This document shows positions 2,063 to 28,992 of a stretch of DNA of 64,000 nucleotides, piece after piece (positions within the stretch are counted from its first letter, which is position 1; every line of letters begins with the position of its first letter). Both the position numbers and the translations under genes were made by a program. The stretch spans positions 15,265 through 79,264 of the IMG/VR virus record IMGVR_UViG_3300027741_000048; one strand, written 5' to 3'. This stretch comes from a virus. The notes under the pieces were generated by a model. It searched no databases. It saw nothing but the letters and a program-made list of their open reading frames with translations, and was not told the DNA's origin.

Positions 2063-2070
2063 AACAATAT

Positions 2071-5000
2071 TTAGCTATTATATGTAATGTTGGTAGCGGA
2101 AGTAAATAACCGGAAGCCTTTTGTTAGTTCATAACTTAACATATTCTGTATAATACCGTCATCTACACTCCAGTCGGTGTAGGAGCTATTCTGTGGTGTA
2201 AGGGTGGTCATGGGATTATACCAATCAATGATATAATCGTAAAAGGTATTATTATTGTTAGAAATATATTCATAAAATTCATAATATTCACTAATAGCTG
2301 ATCCTGTTACTGTATTGGGTATTACCAGAGGCCATCCCCAGCTAGATGTATATGCGGATAACGGGTAGCCTGTAATAGTATCAGTTATTGTTAGTATGGA
2401 TGATGTTATGGTATTTGTATTTACGAGTGAGTAAATACCTGAGAATCGCTCATAAGCAACGACAGGTTTATCAAAAGAAAAAACACCAGATATAGGATCA
2501 ATTCTAGAGCCTAAATTTATACCGTACGTATCGTTTGATGCTATAGTTCCCTGTTTATTAAAATTGCTTGCGTATTTATTTTGCGTTCCCCATAGATTAC
2601 TCTGCTTAATAGATAAAAGATCAACAAGGCGCTTGATTTGTGGGGGGTAAAGATAATTATAATCTTGATAGTTAATACTCAGTTCATTACAGAAAGAAAT
2701 GAGTGCATCGATGTTGCTCTTATCAATGTCAGATCTATTATTAACGAAGTTGCTTATTTTTTCGTAAACAGTTTTTCCTAATTCGTATGGTTGAGCTGAA
2801 AAACCACCGACAATTGTACCGAGGAACTCATTAAAAAATACTTGTTTATCTAAAAGTGTTTCTTGATATCGTAATGAATTATAAAAACTAGCTGCGTTCC
2901 AATCTTCATTTATTTTAGATACGTTATACTGACCTGTTGATGGAAAAATGTTGAATAATGTTGATGAGCCTGTAATTGTTCTTATTGTGCTAACAGGTGC
3001 AGAGTATTTATTAATCCAATGATACCCGTTCCAATCACCTAGTGCTTGAAATTGCTTTTGACCGCTACTGTAATTAACTGCTGATACGGCAGGTAATATA
3101 ACATCTGGATATGTTAATTTAATACTATAACTGTAACTTAAATTCGTGGTCGGTGTTTTAGCACTAGCGTCAATTAAATAAAGCGCTTTATCTGCGTTGT
3201 TTATTACCCAAATATTATTACCAGTATCGCATGTTATTCCACCGATGTTAGAGTTATAATTATTTTGTATGTTATTACCGGCACCGGCGGTAAAATCTGT
3301 ACGCGTGCGTGTCACACCATCGACGCGTGTTATTGTTTCGCGGTTGTGTGAGATCCATGCGTTTTGATTACCATCAATGGTAATATTATTGATTAATTTA
3401 AAGCCTGAAAGCGGATAACCTGTAACAATATTTCCGTATGTATCAAACTTATAAAGCAAATCGTTAGCTGTGGTAAATGAGTCGCGTACCACATTGAGGT
3501 TCTGAGCTGTCACCCAAACAAACGTATTTCTATCTATACAAATTTCATCAGGTACAATAAAATCGGGAAATTTATATTTGTATAATATATCAGCGTTAAA
3601 GTCAAAATTATCTACACCTCTATATTTGATTAAAAAGTTATTAACAGGATGACTGTACGATATCCAGATATTGTTATCATGATCAGCGTCTATAGAGCTG
3701 GGTAAAATAGTACCGTCGCCGGCAAAACCGCTATAGCTTGAATAATCACTCGACGTGAGCATGGTTTCAGTAAAGTCAGGGCAAGCAACGTTAACTGCGT
3801 ATCCATTTGTTGTGTCAAATTTTAATGCCGAGCCGCTATCGATAAGTGTTACCCATATATTATTCTGCCCGTCGAGTGTAATATAGTTCGGCGTAGCAAA
3901 GAAGCGATTACCCTGATCGTCGAGACCTCTATAATCAATATACCGTATCTGGTGGTTTATTAGTGTTGGTACGCTCGAGAGTGAAAAATAGTAAACCGGC
4001 TCGTTTGTGTCTTGACTATAGTAAAGAGGTTGTAATATACCGTTGTAGTCAATACGAGAAATGCGGTCGTTTATTGGATCACCAATCCAAGTCTGATAAT
4101 CGTCATCGTAACCGGGTCCCTGTGGTGCCATAGCGATAGCATATGTATTACTGTCATTAATATCGATTAACGGTTCGTTATTTGTAAATGTTACAGTTTT
4201 ATTACCGTCTAAGCCGTTGTATGTTTCTTGGCGAAGTATTCTAAAAAGAGAACTATACTGCGGTATTGCTATCCAACCAACAAGTGAATCTTTTTGATAA
4301 AAAGTCGGTTCTACAATAGTTATACCGGCAGTGAGTATGCAGTTTTGTGAAGATTGTGACGCTACAAAATATCCTTTATAAAAGCTACCAATTGATTGTG
4401 GTGCTTCAGGTGTAAAATCTTCGTAAAATGTAACACCCTGTACGGTACTTGTATCACCGCTTTCATTAATTTGTACAACACCGAGTTGAACATTGTAGGA
4501 TGTAAGTGGTGAGGTAGAATTATTTACAACACTTGAGGACGAAAGCGGTGGGTAATTCTTGGTTGTATATCCGCGTTCATCTTTTAACTTTATTAAAAAC
4601 GGTATTTGTGTTTCTTGCCAACTAACGTACGGTATATTAAAATTTGTAGCTGATAATATACCTTCACCGTCGATCCCAGTTGTTGTGATACTTAAACGGT
4701 TAGCAGGGTTAAAGCGTGTCTTAATTCCAGGAAATACTATAGGATCGGTGTTTTGTATACCATACGGTGGGTAATTAACGGTGTCGAATATATTTCGGCT
4801 CTCCGTTAATGCGTCATTAAATTTAGAACTATCAACAGTTGCAAAAATAAAAACTGGGTGATCTTCTGTGGTTAGATTTCCGGGTACATCATCAGTATAG
4901 AGAAACTGGCATGTACCTGTTGTACCTACAAATACACTACCTTGATCGCTTTGATTACAGTATTGTAGCGTATTATCTACAATGCTAACAAAAAGCTGTG

Positions 5001-15202: not shown

Positions 15203-15568
15203 TTATTTTAGGGAGTCGTTAATCTCTTTTAAAATTTGTGGTAGAAATTGAGGTTTAATAATCTTAATAACAGTACCGCTTTTCGGTATCTTAAACGGGT
15301 TGTATACCTTATTTGTCAATAATATCAACCACCATAACTCAATCGTCTTATATGCATTAAAGCTAACCATTGTCCAAGGTTGACTGCTTTTAATTGTCAT
15401 ATAAAAAATAGCGCGTGGATCAATCTGATCAGGTAGATAAATGGATTGAATTAAATTATAAAAATACTGGCTATCTGCTGTAGTGTATAATTTAAAGATC
15501 TTTTCATACCGGTTTGTATTTAAATTCGGTAGCGCTTTAATATTGTTTTGATACTTACCTAGATCCAT
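15203..15568 (-). CDS. Baseplate wedge protein (gp53-like, LysM-like)
   Basis: VSFNAYKTIELWWLILLTN..NPF..GTVIKI motif; likely start MDLGKY at 15568 after TAAATA. Confidence 0.7.
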   Translation of the reverse strand: MDLGKYQNNIKALPNLNTNRYEKIFKLYTTADSQYFYNLIQSIYLPDQIDPRAIFYMTIKSSQPWTMVSFNAYKTIELWWLILLTNKVYNPFKIPKSGTVIKIIKPQFLPQILKEINDSLK

Positions 15569-22696: not shown

Positions 22697-25018
22697 TTAT
22701 CCTGTAATTTCAGCGAAGTTTTGATCTGTTCTTGTTGCATAGAAGTTAACAAGAATAAACTCTGCTGTTCTTGTCGGCTTGAGGTAGATGTCAACGACTA
22801 ATGTGTTATCATCTATAACAGCCGGTGGGTTATTACGTTCATCGCATACGATTAAGAAGTCGTATAGACCGTTTGTATTCTTCGCATTCGTAAAGATTGG
22901 TGCGAGTGTGTTGACAACTTGTGTTCTTGTGAACAGCGTATTTGGCTCAAATACGAATTGACGTATTGTGTTATTTGTCTGCTGTTCGAGTGTTAGGAAC
23001 AATCTACGTACGTTAATGCGATCAAATGCGCTTGGTTGTTTGAGTGATGTCTTCTGGCCAAAAACCACATATCCTTCGTTAGGGAGATTCACGACAGGGT
23101 TGAGTGATATCTTATAGAGAAGATCGCGCTCTGATTGCTTCGGATAAACGGCGAGATCTGTAATACCGTTCACAACGCCTCTTGTTACACCTGCTGGTGC
23201 GTACCATGGATGTGCATTGCTATCGACGTTAGCCATGATCGAAGCGGCAAATCCAGAGAACGGTACCCATATAAGGCCATTAGTTGAAGAATCTGCAACT
23301 TGTACGCAATTTGCGTATACAGCTGTATAGCTATTATTTAGCCAGCTAAACTGATTACGTAGAGGCCAATAGATGTTATTTGAGAAGTTTAAGGTTGGAT
23401 TACTAAGAGTCTTGACGTTGTTTTCAACAAAAATATTAGTTAATGGATCGGCGATGAATAGGTGATCTTTGCGGCGATTTGCTGCGAAGTTAATAAACTC
23501 ATCTGCAACAGCTCTATAATCAAGAATAATTTTTGCAGGTGTTGCGTTATCATCTTGCGTATAGGCGTCAATAAGATTAGGATATGGCACTGTATCATCA
23601 AAACAGCCTGATGTAGTTGCAGTGTTTGAATTTGCATAGATGGTACCTAGCCCTGCCTCTGCTACAATAGTTAGTGGGTATAATTCGGTGTTTTCAATCG
23701 TATCTAACAATCTCGACACCTTGCCAGGAACGTTGCCAATAACTTTTGTTGTTAAGTCGACGGAGTTGTAATCGCCGAGTGCGACTAGTTTATCTGTTGT
23801 ACCGTATGCGTTGATTAAGTTTGCATAAACTGCTGCACTACATCCTCCATATACAGCGAATGTTGAGAGAGGTATATTATCGGTTAACCGATTCTTATTA
23901 AGAAAACGTACGGATTTTGTTGGCTTACCGTTATTGTCGAGCCAGGTGCCGACGTTTTGATTTGAGATATACGGATTAACGAACACTTCAATATTTTTTG
24001 ACGTATCGGTAATATCACCGACGAAAAAGCTTTGTGCAGGTCCGCCTTGGGAAGAGTTAATCTTTCTGTAGTAATCAAGTGAACCTGTATATCCTTCTTG
24101 TAAGGTATAACCGAGCGTTGTTGCATCCGGTGTATATCTAGATTTAGCTAATTTAAATACACCGATATTAATTGTATCGTTAAAGCCACTTACAGAAATA
24201 TCAAAGGTATTGACATTTTCCATGACTTCGGAGATACTCTTAGTCACTGATGCAGTCGCAGCTGAAAGGGTAAAGTCAAGTCTTGTTGTTGGTACGATAC
24301 TATAACCACTATAGTTCTGGTTGCCGATAAATGTATCCTGGGTGTTTACCGTATAAACACCTGAGAAGTCATTATAGGCAGGAGAAATAGGTCTCAACGC
24401 TGTATTATCGATAACGCCTAGATATGTACCTTCAAGAATATTATTAATTGAAGCTTGTGATTTATTTAAAACAATAAGACCGGCTTGGCCGAGACCGGTA
24501 ACTGTGGTAAACGACGTTACGCCACCGCCATCTGTTGCCCATGTAAAGGCAGCGCCACGGCGAATATCTATTACCTGCTGCTGTGAGAGACGCACGTGTG
24601 TTGGTGCGCCGAAGTAATATGTAACGTTACCGCTTGTAGCTATAGCTGATGTGGAATATTGAAAATTTGTTGCTGTTACACCGTTCTGTAGTGAAACTGC
24701 AGGGTAAACAAGGGCACTATACTGTGTTGAAGTACCGATACCGAGGTCAGAGCCGTACGGTATGCGGTATGTTAATACGTTTGCTGTTGATTGAAATACT
24801 GCTTTCGCTGTTTGATAAAAATAACGTTCGGCTGCATTTGTCGGTGTTCCATATATGTTTTCAAAATCACCAAGGGAATTTATATATGTTGGTGTCGATG
24901 CTGGTCCGCTGGGTGCAAACCCTGCGATAAAAACCGTCGTCGGTGAAGCAAGTTGTGCTCTTTGTGAAAAGTCAGTTTCTGTAAATTGTATACCGGGACT
25001 TTGAATTGTACGTGCCAT
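22697..25018 (-). CDS. gp18: Tail sheath protein
   Basis: SPGIQFTETD, PWYAPAGVTRG, FGQKT...SAFDRINVRRLFL, FEPN, IYLKPTRTAEFI. Confidence 0.95.
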   Translation of the reverse strand: MARTIQSPGIQFTETDFSQRAQLASPTTVFIAGFAPSGPASTPTYINSLGDFENIYGTPTNAAERYFYQTAKAVFQSTANVLTYRIPYGSDLGIGTSTQYSALVYPAVSLQNGVTATNFQYSTSAIATSGNVTYYFGAPTHVRLSQQQVIDIRRGAAFTWATDGGGVTSFTTVTGLGQAGLIVLNKSQASINNILEGTYLGVIDNTALRPISPAYNDFSGVYTVNTQDTFIGNQNYSGYSIVPTTRLDFTLSAATASVTKSISEVMENVNTFDISVSGFNDTINIGVFKLAKSRYTPDATTLGYTLQEGYTGSLDYYRKINSSQGGPAQSFFVGDITDTSKNIEVFVNPYISNQNVGTWLDNNGKPTKSVRFLNKNRLTDNIPLSTFAVYGGCSAAVYANLINAYGTTDKLVALGDYNSVDLTTKVIGNVPGKVSRLLDTIENTELYPLTIVAEAGLGTIYANSNTATTSGCFDDTVPYPNLIDAYTQDDNATPAKIILDYRAVADEFINFAANRRKDHLFIADPLTNIFVENNVKTLSNPTLNFSNNIYWPLRNQFSWLNNSYTAVYANCVQVADSSTNGLIWVPFSGFAASIMANVDSNAHPWYAPAGVTRGVVNGITDLAVYPKQSERDLLYKISLNPVVNLPNEGYVVFGQKTSLKQPSAFDRINVRRLFLTLEQQTNNTIRQFVFEPNTLFTRTQVVNTLAPIFTNAKNTNGLYDFLIVCDERNNPPAVIDDNTLVVDIYLKPTRTAEFILVNFYATRTDQNFAEITG

Positions 25019-25059: not shown

Positions 25060-25674
25060 TTAGAGATTTTCTATATCAGTTATCGGTGTAACTACAAGCT
25101 GAGAGTAGCTCATGGTAAATTTTGATTCAAGCTCTCCACCGTCTCTATGCGAGTAATTTATACCACCTAGTGCTATAGGAAACGCATTAGTATATTTAAA
25201 TTCCACAACTCTCTTATTATATTCATCGAGTCCAAAAATTGAAACAGTCGCTTGATACTGAGAATGCAATGCTGTTGATGCTGGATCAATAGCAGATCTC
25301 GTTTGTAATGTTAATTTATTAACATCGTATAGTCCTGCTTCATCATTATTAAGCGTGTTAAGCCACGTGTATATAACCCAATAGTTGTTAAATCGGTTAT
25401 CAACTGTAAAATTTATGTCAATAGGCGGGTACGGGTCTCTAGAGTGACTGGTTATATTAAGCGTCTGACCAGAAAAGCGAGTTGCAGTGGGAGGAATTGA
25501 TATATCTGGTACTATAGCGCCAAAAATGGAAAACTGTAATGTATCAGGCATTATGCTTGTTAGATTTCGGTCAAACTTTGATGCAACCTGTTTTAAAGCA
25601 GTCGGGATATTCATGACAAATAAAAATTTGTCTTTTCTTGTCTTATTAAATGGACTCTGTGTGTATGTATTCAT
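25060..25674 (-). CDS. Tail completion/tube terminator (gp3-like)
   Basis: Tube-family pattern INFTVDNRFNNY.VIYTWL...F..AFPIALGGINY. Confidence 0.55.
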   Translation of the reverse strand: MNTYTQSPFNKTRKDKFLFVMNIPTALKQVASKFDRNLTSIMPDTLQFSIFGAIVPDISIPPTATRFSGQTLNITSHSRDPYPPIDINFTVDNRFNNYWVIYTWLNTLNNDEAGLYDVNKLTLQTRSAIDPASTALHSQYQATVSIFGLDEYNKRVVEFKYTNAFPIALGGINYSHRDGGELESKFTMSYSQLVVTPITDIENL

Positions 25675-25675
25675 T

Positions 25676-27214
25676 TTAATATAGTGTCGTCCACCCTTGT
25701 TGTTCGAGATTTGTAAGATCTGTATGATCAGGCGTATCTCCTATATCAAAAATAATAGGCATCGGTATTCCTTGATCAGGGTTTTTTTCGTTGCTATATA
25801 TTGATGTAGGGTTGATAAAATATTTAATCCCGTAGTCGAGTGATTTAATGGCTTGTGGTCGCTTGTTATCATCAAGCTCGGTGATCTCGTAATATTTCTC
25901 GGTAATTTCGTTTTCTAGTATCATTAATGACCAGATTAAACTCATTACGCGATCGTCCCAGTTATCAGACCCGGGCTTAGCAGCCCATGTACCGTTTGGA
26001 TAACGTACGAAATTTCTAAGTTCATTAAGTGTTTTTAGATCACGTATACGGACAACATTAAGCTCGTTTATCCAGTATCGCATGTTCGTGATACCCTTGT
26101 ATTTTGTATTAGTATGAGCTACAACACCGATTTTATTAAACACTTTATCACCGGCTTTTACACCGTAATTGACAATATTCTCGTAATTCAATGTACTTTT
26201 TAATTGATCCACAACTTGTGCGCCGCAATTATTTCTCTCGATTAAAGCAGGCGGTGAACCCCAGTGTTGTAGTATCTCGTGTAGTTTTGTAGTGAAATTA
26301 TATGGACTGATGTTACGGTTATGATATATTGCCACTTGCTCAACGTTACGTAAATCAGTTATATCTAATACCTGAACAACAGAAGCTGCTTCACCGACGC
26401 CTTCGGATATATCGACACCGACTACATATAATCTTTCCTTACTAGGCTCAGACCATAGAAGGTAATGACCGTCGTCAAATACAAATCTCGGCTCTGTACA
26501 ATCGGCCTTTAGCCTGTCGAAGAATTCTTCATTAATCGCACTTTCACCAGATTGATGAAACACATTTCCGAATTCTTGATCAAATGCTTCTCTACTTCCT
26601 AATTCTCGTATTGTATTCTTTTTCCATTTCTCATCTCTTCCAGGTATCTCCCACCAGTCGACACGCTCTGCTTTCCAGCCATTATGCTTTTCTGGGTCTG
26701 TCTCCTGAGCTCCTGAATATAATTCGTAGAACAAATTATTTGAACCATTCGGTGTACTAGCTACAAAGATCTTAGATTTCTTAGATGATGAAATAATCGG
26801 ATAAACCGATCGCCAAAAATCCTCGACCATATGATTATCAATGAACGCTAACTCGTCAAGGATAAGGCATTGATGACTTAATATACCGTTTGCGTAATAT
26901 CTATGGCTGTCTTTTACATCGAGAATCTCGTACACTGAGTCTGTATTTGTATATGTTTCAATTTTGTCTATTTTTATATTCGAAAATAATATATCACCAA
27001 CTTTAAGGTCTTTTGCATAAATCCATTCGAATGCGGTGTTTTTTATAATTTTGTGTTTTGGCGTGCAGACTAATTCTCTTCCGTTTGAAAATGTAAATTT
27101 AATCTTATCTGTATTGCTTCCAATAATAACACCTTCAAAATTCTTGAACCCGTCGTCTGTCAAGATTTCATAATCTGTATTTTTTAAAATCTTATAATTA
27201 TTAATGTCAGCCAT
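25676..27214 (-). CDS. gp17: Terminase large subunit, C-terminal part, preceded by a split-intein C-fragment
   Basis: After ...ANGILSHQ comes CLILDELAF (Walker B), STPNG, FDQEF, nuclease GVDISEG, DDRVMS. Confidence 0.92.
   Translation of the reverse strand: MADINNYKILKNTDYEILTDDGFKNFEGVIIGSNTDKIKFTFSNGRELVCTPKHKIIKNTAFEWIYAKDLKVGDILFSNIKIDKIETYTNTDSVYEILDVKDSHRYYANGILSHQCLILDELAFIDNHMVEDFWRSVYPIISSSKKSKIFVASTPNGSNNLFYELYSGAQETDPEKHNGWKAERVDWWEIPGRDEKWKKNTIRELGSREAFDQEFGNVFHQSGESAINEEFFDRLKADCTEPRFVFDDGHYLLWSEPSKERLYVVGVDISEGVGEAASVVQVLDITDLRNVEQVAIYHNRNISPYNFTTKLHEILQHWGSPPALIERNNCGAQVVDQLKSTLNYENIVNYGVKAGDKVFNKIGVVAHTNTKYKGITNMRYWINELNVVRIRDLKTLNELRNFVRYPNGTWAAKPGSDNWDDRVMSLIWSLMILENEITEKYYEITELDDNKRPQAIKSLDYGIKYFINPTSIYSNEKNPDQGIPMPIIFDIGDTPDHTDLTNLEQQGWTTLY
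26870..27214 (-). mobile_element. Split intein C-fragment (115 aa), ending His-Gln, +1 Cys
   Basis: Block B VCTPKH, block F VYEILDV, block G YYANGILSHQ/C. Confidence 0.85.
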
Positions 27215-27218
27215 ATTA

Positions 27219-27296
27219 TTAGTTTTTACGTTTTCCGGTACCGCGTAACCAATTATCCGGAATTGCAGTATTTGGATGAATAAGCATCTTAATCAT
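27219..27296 (-). pseudogene. 25-codon relic resembling a homing-endonuclease C-terminal motif
   Basis: MIKMLIHPNTAIPDNWLRGTGKRKN*; starts overlapping the TerL-N stop (ATGATTAA) and ends 4 nt before the TerL-C ATG. Confidence 0.45.
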
Positions 27297-28992
27297 TTAT
27301 TATTTTCAATTGAAGCTCTGTATTGTTCTTTAATTTATTAGCGAGGTCATACATACTAACTTGAAATACCTCATGTGTAACTTTATCTCTTAAAGTAACT
27401 AGTGTTTCACCTGCAACACAATTACAGCTATCACCACGACCAGCGTCGCTACTCGTTGTGCTTATACCAATACTCGACCCGTTAGACAAGGTCATTGACG
27501 TTTTACCGTATTCGAGTACACCAGGCTTTAAGTAGTTTGGAAGCTTCTCATACGCCATTCTTATTCGTTTGAATATGTTAATAGCTGTTTGTTCCTTGTT
27601 AGCTACTACAAGTATTCTCTGATCTTCCTGAAAGCATGCAACCCAAAGAGCGTAGATTGTCATAAGGGTCGTATTATGCGTAGGAATCAGTTGTCTACCG
27701 GCTAAATAGAGGCTGTCTTTACTGTCTACCGTAATACATCTAACTGGTGTGGATGGAACTTCGATGATACTTTTTATATAGTGCCATTGTGATCGGTAAT
27801 TGGATTGCACTATATGCGGCTTGAGTTTTAATCTGCTCTTTTTAAAAGAAAGTCTGCAAATACATTCAATAGGAGTGAATGTTATTGATGCGCATGGTGA
27901 GCAATTTACTCCTTTAAGTGTTGGTACATATTCTTTATATGATACCTTATAACCTAAACTCTCTACTAATTGCTTTACTTGTTTTACTAATTCAATATTT
28001 GTATTATAGAATTGACATATGCCGTTTTTATTAATATACCCGTCACTATCTATTAGCCCTTGTAGGAGCGACAGTCGCTGTACTCTATCAGCTAGCAAAT
28101 AATCGCTAGGTATATGCTTATTATTTTTAAGATTGTATTGGTTAAGTAAAGCTGATAGGCTATGTGTTTGAATGTTTTTTTCTGTACTAATCCTTAATGT
28201 ATAAACATCTGTACTGTATTCGTGTAATAGTAATTTATTAAATTGAGTTTGTTGAGTTTTGAGAATATCGATGATTTCGTTTATATCGCGTCTACCTACT
28301 GTTAGAGATCCACTAGCGCTAGTTCCGTCACCTAACCATAAACCTAATACATATGGGTCAATATCTAGCTTTCTCGTTGTTCCTGAAACTCCGTTTATGC
28401 ACGTGGGTATTCTATGATTTGGTTCGTTGCTATTAGGTACGAATAGTGTGTTGAATATTTCTGTTGTGGTTTTTACGGTGCCGATTGTTTTTCTTTCACT
28501 TCTTGCTTCTGTATACCAGAGGTGCTCGGCATCAGCTATTATTTCTTCACCGTTGTCAAAAATTACTTTATAGCATTTTCTATCTTTTAGAACGTCATGC
28601 GCATACAAAACATTGCATGGCATGCCGTCAGCTCCATAGACTTGATCACCAGCCTTTAAATCACCCATCGTCGACCAGCCTGTTGGTGTAAGTATCGGTG
28701 TGTTGAGAGCGAGTGCTTTACCTATCTGACGGCTAGCCAATAAACACACGAATCGATTATCGCGTAGTGATCTAAGTATTTTTTTCTGACAGAGGTGTAG
28801 CTGTATTTTTATTTTACCTTGATCGAGGTTTGTAATATAAAAGAAATTTTCCGCAAAAAACAAAATGTTTTTTCTGCATTTATCAATGTCCTTTATCCAC
28901 TCAGGGTTTGACTGATAGTCAAACGCTGCATCAGGCGTGGGTAGATTCTCGTTACCAAGATAATATTGCTGTTTTTCCTTTTTAGTAGGCAT
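27289..28992 (-). CDS. gp17: Terminase large subunit, N-terminal part, with cis intein and split-intein N-fragment
   Basis: Walker A SRQIGK|TT interrupted by an intein; VANKEQTA, LPNYLKPG, GRGDSCN then CVAGETLV. Confidence 0.92.
   Translation of the reverse strand: MPTKKEKQQYYLGNENLPTPDAAFDYQSNPEWIKDIDKCRKNILFFAENFFYITNLDQGKIKIQLHLCQKKILRSLRDNRFVCLLASRQIGKALALNTPILTPTGWSTMGDLKAGDQVYGADGMPCNVLYAHDVLKDRKCYKVIFDNGEEIIADAEHLWYTEARSERKTIGTVKTTTEIFNTLFVPNSNEPNHRIPTCINGVSGTTRKLDIDPYVLGLWLGDGTSASGSLTVGRRDINEIIDILKTQQTQFNKLLLHEYSTDVYTLRISTEKNIQTHSLSALLNQYNLKNNKHIPSDYLLADRVQRLSLLQGLIDSDGYINKNGICQFYNTNIELVKQVKQLVESLGYKVSYKEYVPTLKGVNCSPCASITFTPIECICRLSFKKSRLKLKPHIVQSNYRSQWHYIKSIIEVPSTPVRCITVDSKDSLYLAGRQLIPTHNTTLMTIYALWVACFQEDQRILVVANKEQTAINIFKRIRMAYEKLPNYLKPGVLEYGKTSMTLSNGSSIGISTTSSDAGRGDSCNCVAGETLVTLRDKVTHEVFQVSMYDLANKLKNNTELQLKIIND
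27292..27420 (-). mobile_element. Split intein N-fragment (43 aa)
   Basis: Block A CVAGETLVTLRD, followed by a stop after 43 residues. Confidence 0.85.
27673..28716 (-). mobile_element. Cis intein (348 aa), Ala-start class-3 type, with LAGLIDADG homing endonuclease
   Basis: ALALNTPI start, AEHLW, LGLWLGDG and LLQGLIDSDG, VRCITVD, IPTHN/T end. Confidence 0.9.

Follow-up and report, generated by a model that had tools for sequence, protein, structure and literature searches.

In a 64,000-nucleotide (nt) stretch of the IMG/VR virus record IMGVR_UViG_3300027741_000048 (positions 15,265 to 79,264 of the record; hereafter the window, to which all coordinates refer), the gene for the terminase TerL of a T4-like phage is broken into two genes, each fused to one part of an intein. 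The record is a 36%-complete fragment of 79,264 nt, and the source metagenome is probably freshwater. The upstream gene, TerL-N, ends in an N-terminal intein fragment (IntN) of 43 amino acids (aa), and the downstream gene, TerL-C, begins with a C-terminal fragment (IntC) of 115 aa. An original prediction, made from the nucleotide sequence alone, had given the coordinates of the locus and of both intein fragments, the fragment lengths and the stop codon of TerL-N, all of which agree with the sequence. The features are as follows, related loci being designated by L numbers.

27289–28992, (−) strand: TerL-N, 567 aa, ending in the 43-aa IntN.
28717–28992, (−) strand: TerL N-extein part 1, residues 1–92 of TerL-N, ending in the Walker A sequence ...SRQIGK; abuts part 2 in ∼65 intein-free relatives.
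27673–28716, (−) strand: first intein, 348 aa, contiguous, with Ala1 and a LAGLIDADG endonuclease domain (Pfam LAGLIDADG_3 and Hom_end).
27421–27672, (−) strand: TerL N-extein part 2, 84 aa, ending ...GRGDSCN; relatives 71–98% identical with exact junctions.
27292–27420, (−) strand: IntN, 43 aa, block A with Cys1 (CVAGETLVT...) and without block B, from an alignment of 19 IntN sequences.
27289–27291, (−) strand: TAA stop of TerL-N, identical in a Logan contig; relatives stop within a few codons.
27215–27288, (−) strand: spacer, 74 nt, 3′ relic of a GIY-YIG (SegE-like) endonuclease gene, from DNA alignment with the gene 3′ ends of L001–L003 and L023.
25676–27214, (−) strand: TerL-C, 512 aa, beginning with the 115-aa IntC.
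26870–27214, (−) strand: IntC, 115 aa, starting MAD..., with blocks B, F and G, from the match to PDB 6dsl_B, the AF2 model with Foldseek, and alignment.
25676–26869, (−) strand: TerL C-extein, 397 aa plus stop, starting at Cys+1, with Walker B CLILDE and then the nuclease domain (Pfam Terminase_6N and Terminase_6C).

In translation, the 3′ end of TerL-N reads ...GRGDSCN/CVAGETLVTLRD..., where the slash marks the extein–intein border; 43 intein residues are followed by TAA, and the nucleophile Cys1 of IntN is Cys525 of TerL-N. TerL-C begins MADINNYK... and, after 115 residues, passes from intein to extein at ...NGILSHQ/CLILDELAF. IntC displays block B as T51-P-K-H54, block F with Glu96 (position F:4) and His104 (F:13), and block G as His114-Gln115 followed by Cys+1. 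The Walker B motif of T4-type terminases has the form hhhhDE. Positions 100–210 of the Pfam Terminase_6N profile begin at TerL-C residue 117, and Terminase_6C is also matched. Both terminase genes lie upstream of T4-like genes for the tail sheath (22697–25018) and tail tube (25060–25674), an order (terminase, sheath, tube) common to the window and phage kaaroe; the Pfam matches and the gene order together identify the host protein as a T4-type TerL. IntC and IntN occupy different reading frames, and the IntC ATG lies 206 nt beyond the last IntN codon; simple read-through therefore cannot join the halves.

Six segments (N-extein part 1, first intein, N-extein part 2, IntN, IntC and C-extein) were compared by tblastn with 80 related IMG/VR loci. 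In ∼65 intein-free loci (e.g. L004, 86–98% identical) the three extein segments abut exactly and in a single frame, and the C-extein is 56–86% identical to intein-free relatives from its residue 1. Thus, both insertions are precise. Deletion of IntN, spacer and IntC (551 nt) restores ...GDSCN-CLILDELAF in the Walker B region, and the predicted rejoining of GRGDSCN with CLILDELAF is what the intein-free relatives display. An intein-free allele is represented by a 151-nt contig of a second, unrelated metagenome, in which exactly 551 nt are missing at the same position. The split intein is therefore inserted precisely and in frame in a conserved host motif. The GC content falls to 0.32–0.34 over the cassette (26700–27600), against 0.38–0.39 in the flanking terminase, a mild compositional sign of foreign origin.

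The split itself recurs widely. The same layout, an IntN of 31–47 aa with a stop and a separate open reading frame (ORF) starting MAD..., occurs in >20 distinct IMG/VR loci from many samples, the same split point being listed in L002, L003, L022–24 and L085–L113, and in ∼50 to 60 protein clusters, likewise from many samples, of a 5.8-billion-protein collection. Split-layout relatives are 46–70% identical to the window, and distant ones ending in His-Asn, such as L113, ∼34%; the spacers between the halves range from 2 to 1660 nt. In all these respects the locus is a two-ORF fractured gene, with extein fused to an intein half in each ORF and the arrangement conserved in relatives. A Logan contig of the probable source run (4,924 nt, depth ∼20) is identical over 26500–27800, stop and spacer included, but as a re-assembly, possibly of the same reads, it is weak as independent evidence. 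Since the split point recurs in >20 independent metagenomic loci, it very probably does not result from an assembly error.

What kind of intein this is can be read from sequence, fold and conserved residues. Among all PDB sequences, IntC is best matched by 6dsl_B (CatC; E 1.3e-8, 30% identity), then by gp41-1 and VidaL. An AF2 model of IntC alone, built from a 20-sequence alignment, has a predicted local distance difference test score of 88.6; its best Foldseek match is again 6dsl_B (template modelling scores 0.78/0.80, 30% identity), and of 28 matches at E ≤ 1e-3, every one listed is an intein or a BIL/HINT domain, so that IntC is predicted to adopt the HINT fold. IntN, searched against PDB sequences, retrieved designed armadillo repeats only; these matches were judged spurious because the fragment is too short. 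Two alignments, of 20 IntC sequences and of 19 distinct IntN sequences, define the conserved positions. Cys1 is invariant in all 19 IntN sequences, which are conserved over their first ∼32 residues and vary in the tail. In the IntC alignment, T51 and H54 (block B TxxH) and Cys+1 are invariant, and Glu96 and His104 are conserved at 90% or more; across 259 relatives, B:7 is T, S or A and B:10 is H. With 43 aa before the break and 115 aa after it, the element is split between blocks A and B in the manner of atypically split TerL inteins, whose IntN does not exceed 45 aa and whose IntC is longer than 100 aa. By its sequence, the element is assigned to class-1-type inteins split between blocks A and B, in the atypically split terminase lineage. 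The best sequence match and the best match of the predicted fold place IntC with AceL-TerL, GOS-TerL and Cat, the kinship that had been proposed for it.

The resemblance to these systems is close. Like AceL-TerL, GOS-TerL and Cat, the window element has a T4-type TerL host, an IntN with block A only, a long IntC with blocks B, F and G, and Cys+1. The IntN/IntC lengths are 37/115 for GOS, 25/104 for AceL and 30/104 for Cat (PMC11766414), compared with 43/115 here. AceL-TerL and GOS-TerL, the source of the Cat consensus, trans-splice experimentally (PMC11766414). Differences concern mainly active-site positions: the window intein ends in Gln and the known ones in Asn; relative to Cat, it has Glu instead of Asp at F:4 and His instead of Asn at F:13, with only ∼30% identity; and it has Cys1 where GOS-TerL has Ser1. 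The 6DSL construct itself carries non-native exteins. Block F had been noted in the original prediction, which did not list the exchange of Asp for Glu at F:4.

The architecture as such is known already, from Dassa et al. (2009) and from AceL-TerL, GOS-TerL and Cat: Dassa et al. (2009; PMC2677866) describe a fractured T4-like terminase with an atypically split intein, a layout that they were the first to note, for one Lake Gatun locus, and that was characterised later in GOS-TerL and AceL-TerL. Their fractured genes are essential phage genes in two ORFs, each with an intein half, as here, and include a Lake Gatun gp17 ‘Terminase’ split intein with an unusual break point and a C-terminal part of 122 residues lacking only motif N1. 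Relatives of the window resemble these loci in carrying a free-standing GIY-YIG gene between the halves. One locus described there also has no endonuclease; in the window, the endonuclease gene is cut down to a 74-nt relic. A Gln terminus is not mentioned in the passages searched of that paper.

Two cultured phages provide further comparisons. Campylobacter phage CP21 has a split intein at the same site as the window (RGFSC/C...NHN/CNIIVVDE), with a nuclease gene between the halves, and in kaaroe, an Escherichia coli phage (Krischvirus), TerL is likewise divided between two ORFs and its IntN is short. Both differ from the window in ending His-Asn, and the kaaroe intein lies five residues downstream (IDE/C) with IntN fused in frame to a TnsA/endonuclease-I-like nuclease. 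In kaaroe (L081, MN850574, 745–3856) and at least five similar coliphage records, the two TerL ORFs overlap; the N-half ends IDE/CVSG..., its IntN being fused to a nuclease of ∼290 aa annotated ‘hypothetical protein’, and the IntC of the C-half ends SHN/CAFI. CP21 (L082, HE815464, 1–3907) carries three TerL inteins, of which two are contiguous, one at Walker A and a mini-intein after the Walker B DE, and the third is the split one at the site shared with the window. Its nuclease gene between the split halves is of T5orf172 type, and its 614-aa C-terminal ORF (2063–3907) is annotated only from 3122.

The terminal residue is where the window departs most from the canonical scheme. Asp at F:4 with Asn at G:7 is a near-universal pair in inteins, and the penultimate His normally assists cyclisation. 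Here, His114 and Cys+1 of block G are present and Gln115 occupies the terminal position of Asn; its codon, CAA, is two positions away from either Asn codon. This departs from the canonical motif without, by analogy, departing from the mechanism, as Gln is a documented functional substitute (PMC4031507). In the inteins of Pyrococcus abyssi and P. horikoshii PolII and of Chilo iridescent virus RNR, a terminal Gln likewise replaces Asn for the cyclisation of step 3, and these Gln-ended inteins were shown to splice (PMC4031507, PMC8175363), slowly for P. abyssi PolII and efficiently for the Chilo iridescent virus RNR (PMC4031507). In contrast to the window element, they are contiguous, none of them being split, come from unrelated hosts and are related to it only remotely through the HINT domain (Foldseek ranks 8 and 26); the P. 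abyssi PolII intein has Ser at F:4, where the window has Glu.

The Gln ending is shared by the relatives of the window. In a first protein search, all 47 split homologues end in Gln, with the penultimate residue H in 28, N in 8, R, K and Q in 3 each, and E and S in 1 each. Searched with a profile, 1.84 billion representatives yielded 2,098 matches at E ≤ 1e-3, and among 259 distinct aligned relatives, 69 are Gln-ended. In a FastTree phylogeny of the relatives, built without the trait columns, the window belongs to a clade of 67 sequences (support 94), of which 61 end in Gln; the intein starts the protein, i.e. is split, in 58 of these 61, and nearly all of the 61 have Glu at F:4. The penultimate residue of the clade is H, N, K, R, Q, S, E or M, and Gln alone is conserved. 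A few members end Lys-Asn, the contiguous P0036 among them, and distant split relatives at the same site (the L113 group and CP21) end His-Asn. Thus, the His-Gln ending is present as originally described, but an ending in Gln is the rule in a large environmental clade. Judged by these sequences, a large group of split inteins, apparently undescribed, has conserved the terminal Gln. No description of Gln-ended split or terminase inteins, or of their clade, was found in the full texts searched, the GOS-TerL and Cat primary papers being outside the search.

The 74-nt spacer gives a glimpse of the past of the cassette. In L002, L003, L022–24 and most other relatives, 757–1660 nt separate the halves and hold an ORF of 240–408 aa; the inter-half ORFs scanned (n = 3) match SegE-type GIY-YIG endonucleases. 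No free-standing endonuclease gene lies between the halves in the window, where the spacer aligns with the last ∼70 nt of the relatives' endonuclease genes and encodes ...IPDNWLRGTG..., compared with ...IPKDWLRGTG... in the relatives; the last ∼20 codons of the gene are left. This alignment with endonuclease-gene 3′ ends indicates that the gene was deleted in the window. Other endonuclease-less loci have spacers of 2, 26, 47 and 108 nt. The remnant forms a micro-ORF of 25 codons (27219–27296) that takes in the stop codon of TerL-N and closes 4 nt ahead of the IntC ATG. The full-length endonuclease ORF of relatives either overlaps the start of IntC (e.g. in L002, 3265–4008 versus 4001) or lies directly next to it. 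The relic may have been retained for translational coupling to the start of IntC/TerL-C. Neither a T4-type late promoter box nor a terminator-like site was found in the 74-nt spacer, a sequence pattern consistent with co-transcription of the halves. The longest gap between halves (1660 nt; L101, 1338–3000) has a raw translation matching Pfam DUF7487, Mom and, weakly, Vsr, and this cargo differs from the GIY-YIG genes of the other loci.

Both intein halves are under purifying selection. Where synonymous divergence (dS) is unsaturated, its ratio with non-synonymous divergence (dN/dS) is 0.08–0.16 for IntC and 0.23–0.39 for IntN; between the window and its nearest intein relatives, dS is saturated, and an extein comparison of the window with L086, misaligned by an indel, was disregarded. 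In the pairs L084/L085 and L093/L096, the intein halves are 92–93% identical in amino acids with dS ∼0.4, and the flanking terminase is 75–79% identical with dS of 1.4 or more, a pattern that suggests recent lateral movement of endonuclease-bearing cassettes. The window intein is only 66–70% identical to its nearest intein relative, and its closest exteins are those of intein-free phages, which fits an older, immobilised copy.

Taken together, these data make it likely, with good confidence, that the element is a functional, naturally split class-1 intein that trans-splices with cyclisation of Gln. Its course can be proposed from the motifs. Both halves would probably be transcribed together as late genes; TerL-N, with the first, Ala1 intein already spliced in cis, and TerL-C would be translated separately. 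The ∼32 conserved residues of IntN would dock on a partly folded 115-aa IntC and complete the HINT domain. Cys1 would then form a thioester and attack by Cys+1 would give the branched intermediate, upon which Gln115 would cyclise to an aminoglutarimide, instead of the usual aminosuccinimide, and release the intein. An S-to-N shift would finally create the native peptide bond in ...GDSCN-CLILDE... and rebuild the ATPase core just before Walker B. As to history, the element may have arrived as a mobile cassette in which a free-standing GIY-YIG homing endonuclease gene separated IntN from IntC, the endonuclease being deleted later in the window phage with its last ∼20 codons left behind. No packaging ATPase other than the terminase was seen in the window, and the insertion lies within the ATPase core of this enzyme; phages with similarly fractured TerL, kaaroe and CP21, propagate in the laboratory; by analogy, this lends indirect support to the idea that such fractured genes yield active terminase.

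Several observations weigh against this reading. Pfam and NCBIfam intein models match only below their curated cutoffs (Intein_splicing on IntC, 28.1 bits versus 35.8). Of the two commonest residues of block F, Asp at F:4 and His at F:13, the second is present (His104) and the first is replaced by Glu96; Glu is the norm of the clade, and Asp at F:4 is usual but not obligatory (PMC4031507). Terminal Gln acts slowly in the characterised archaeal PolII inteins, which fits ill with a lytic late gene (PMC4031507). A second, intact terL may lie elsewhere in a genome of which the record is incomplete. Finally, the assembly was checked at the level of contigs only. That last point, with the metagenomic origin of the window and the existence of rare contiguous relatives (P0036, P0043 and L117–119), is what speaks for a contiguous mini-intein broken by faulty assembly or sequencing, or for a decayed pseudogene of a defective phage. 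Such an origin is highly improbable: stop, frame change and separate MAD start are repeated in >20 independent loci with spacers from 2 to 1660 nt, the re-assembly at ∼20× depth is identical, the spacer is a recognisable relic of an endonuclease gene and not noise, and dN/dS is well below 1. On the comparative data, an assembly artefact is very unlikely.

More attention is due to the idea that the halves associate without ligating, giving a non-covalent two-chain terminase held by the reassembled HINT domain, or cleavage only, with Gln marking a lost cyclisation step. Gln cyclises worse than Asn in some inteins (PMC4031507), the penultimate His is freely swapped for N, K, R, Q, S or E in the clade, and Aeh1 NrdA, fractured by an endonuclease without an intein, is still an active enzyme (cited in PMC2677866). 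Against this, Cys1, the T and H of block B, the His of F:13, Cys+1 and the terminal Gln are conserved at only ∼50% identity; the conservation of catalytic residues indicates that the chemistry is under selection, since a dimerisation module needs no Cys1, Cys+1 or Gln. Moreover, a 158-residue domain that stayed in the ATPase core, immediately ahead of the Walker B strand, would probably disturb it. Association without ligation is therefore unlikely, and trans-splicing is preferred. As a further alternative, Glu(F:4) and Gln(G:7), each one methylene longer, could constitute a coupled alternative active site with efficient Gln cyclisation, and not a drifted Asn-type site. Among the 259 distinct relatives, the F:4/terminal pairs are E/Q in 55, D/N in 184, D/Q in 14 and E/N in 3, and every Gln-ended member of the 20-sequence IntC alignment has Glu at F:4. 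However, the D/Q and E/N combinations do occur, and the association comes almost wholly from one clade: a phylogenetically independent-pairs test of Gln against Glu(F:4), split state and penultimate His found 4 supported contrasts, which leaves the sign test without power. A coupled site is thus possible but rather doubtful, and the association of Gln with Glu(F:4) is best described as a pattern carried essentially by one clade, without a claim of co-evolution.

Other inteins inhabit this terminase family. The first intein of the window (27673–28716, (−) strand) sits in Walker A between K and T (...SRQIGK/A...THN/T), and its translation starts with Ala1 and resembles class-3 inteins in having Trp, Cys and Thr at B:12, F:4 and G:5, respectively. 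It is absent from most relatives, with same-site homologues in L015–18, L028–29, L064 and L075, and P0036 has an endonuclease-less mini version of this Walker A intein. L064 (2730–5212) and P0039 display a further intein site in the C-extein (...QEFN/C...SHN/CEF...), which brings the number of intein sites in this family to at least four. The profile search also retrieved many IntC-like proteins of N-terminal (split) type that precede T/S-rich exteins such as TTTASI, and include groups with Ala at B:7 and Thr or Ser at +1; these TTTASI-type proteins look like atypically split inteins at the terminase Walker A site. P0052, either a deletion derivative or a chimeric assembly, passes from the N-extein straight to an internal part of IntC, in its middle (...GISTITCTPKHK...).

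The window thus contributes one member of an abundant environmental clade with the same architecture, Gln at the cyclisation step and Glu at F:4. What is particular to the window is that a remnant of the endonuclease gene has survived and that the terminase also carries, in Walker A, an Ala1, class-3-like LAGLIDADG intein. Natural split inteins with a short IntN are wanted tools for protein semisynthesis and labelling, and to our knowledge only a handful have been characterised (AceL-TerL, GOS-TerL, VidaL and PolB16 OarG). It is tempting to propose, tentatively, that a large clade of mesophilic or cold-water phages uses Glu/Gln in place of Asp/Asn, with a dispensable penultimate His and with splicing fast enough for a lytic late motor. 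If true, Gln cyclisation would be efficient in the right active site, and the clade would offer, ready-made by nature, ligation tools with a short IntN that might be orthogonal to those already available. For the phages themselves, the locus represents the later life of a selfish cassette, in which the endonuclease is lost and the intein halves are kept under purifying selection, as the host motor would not run in their absence.

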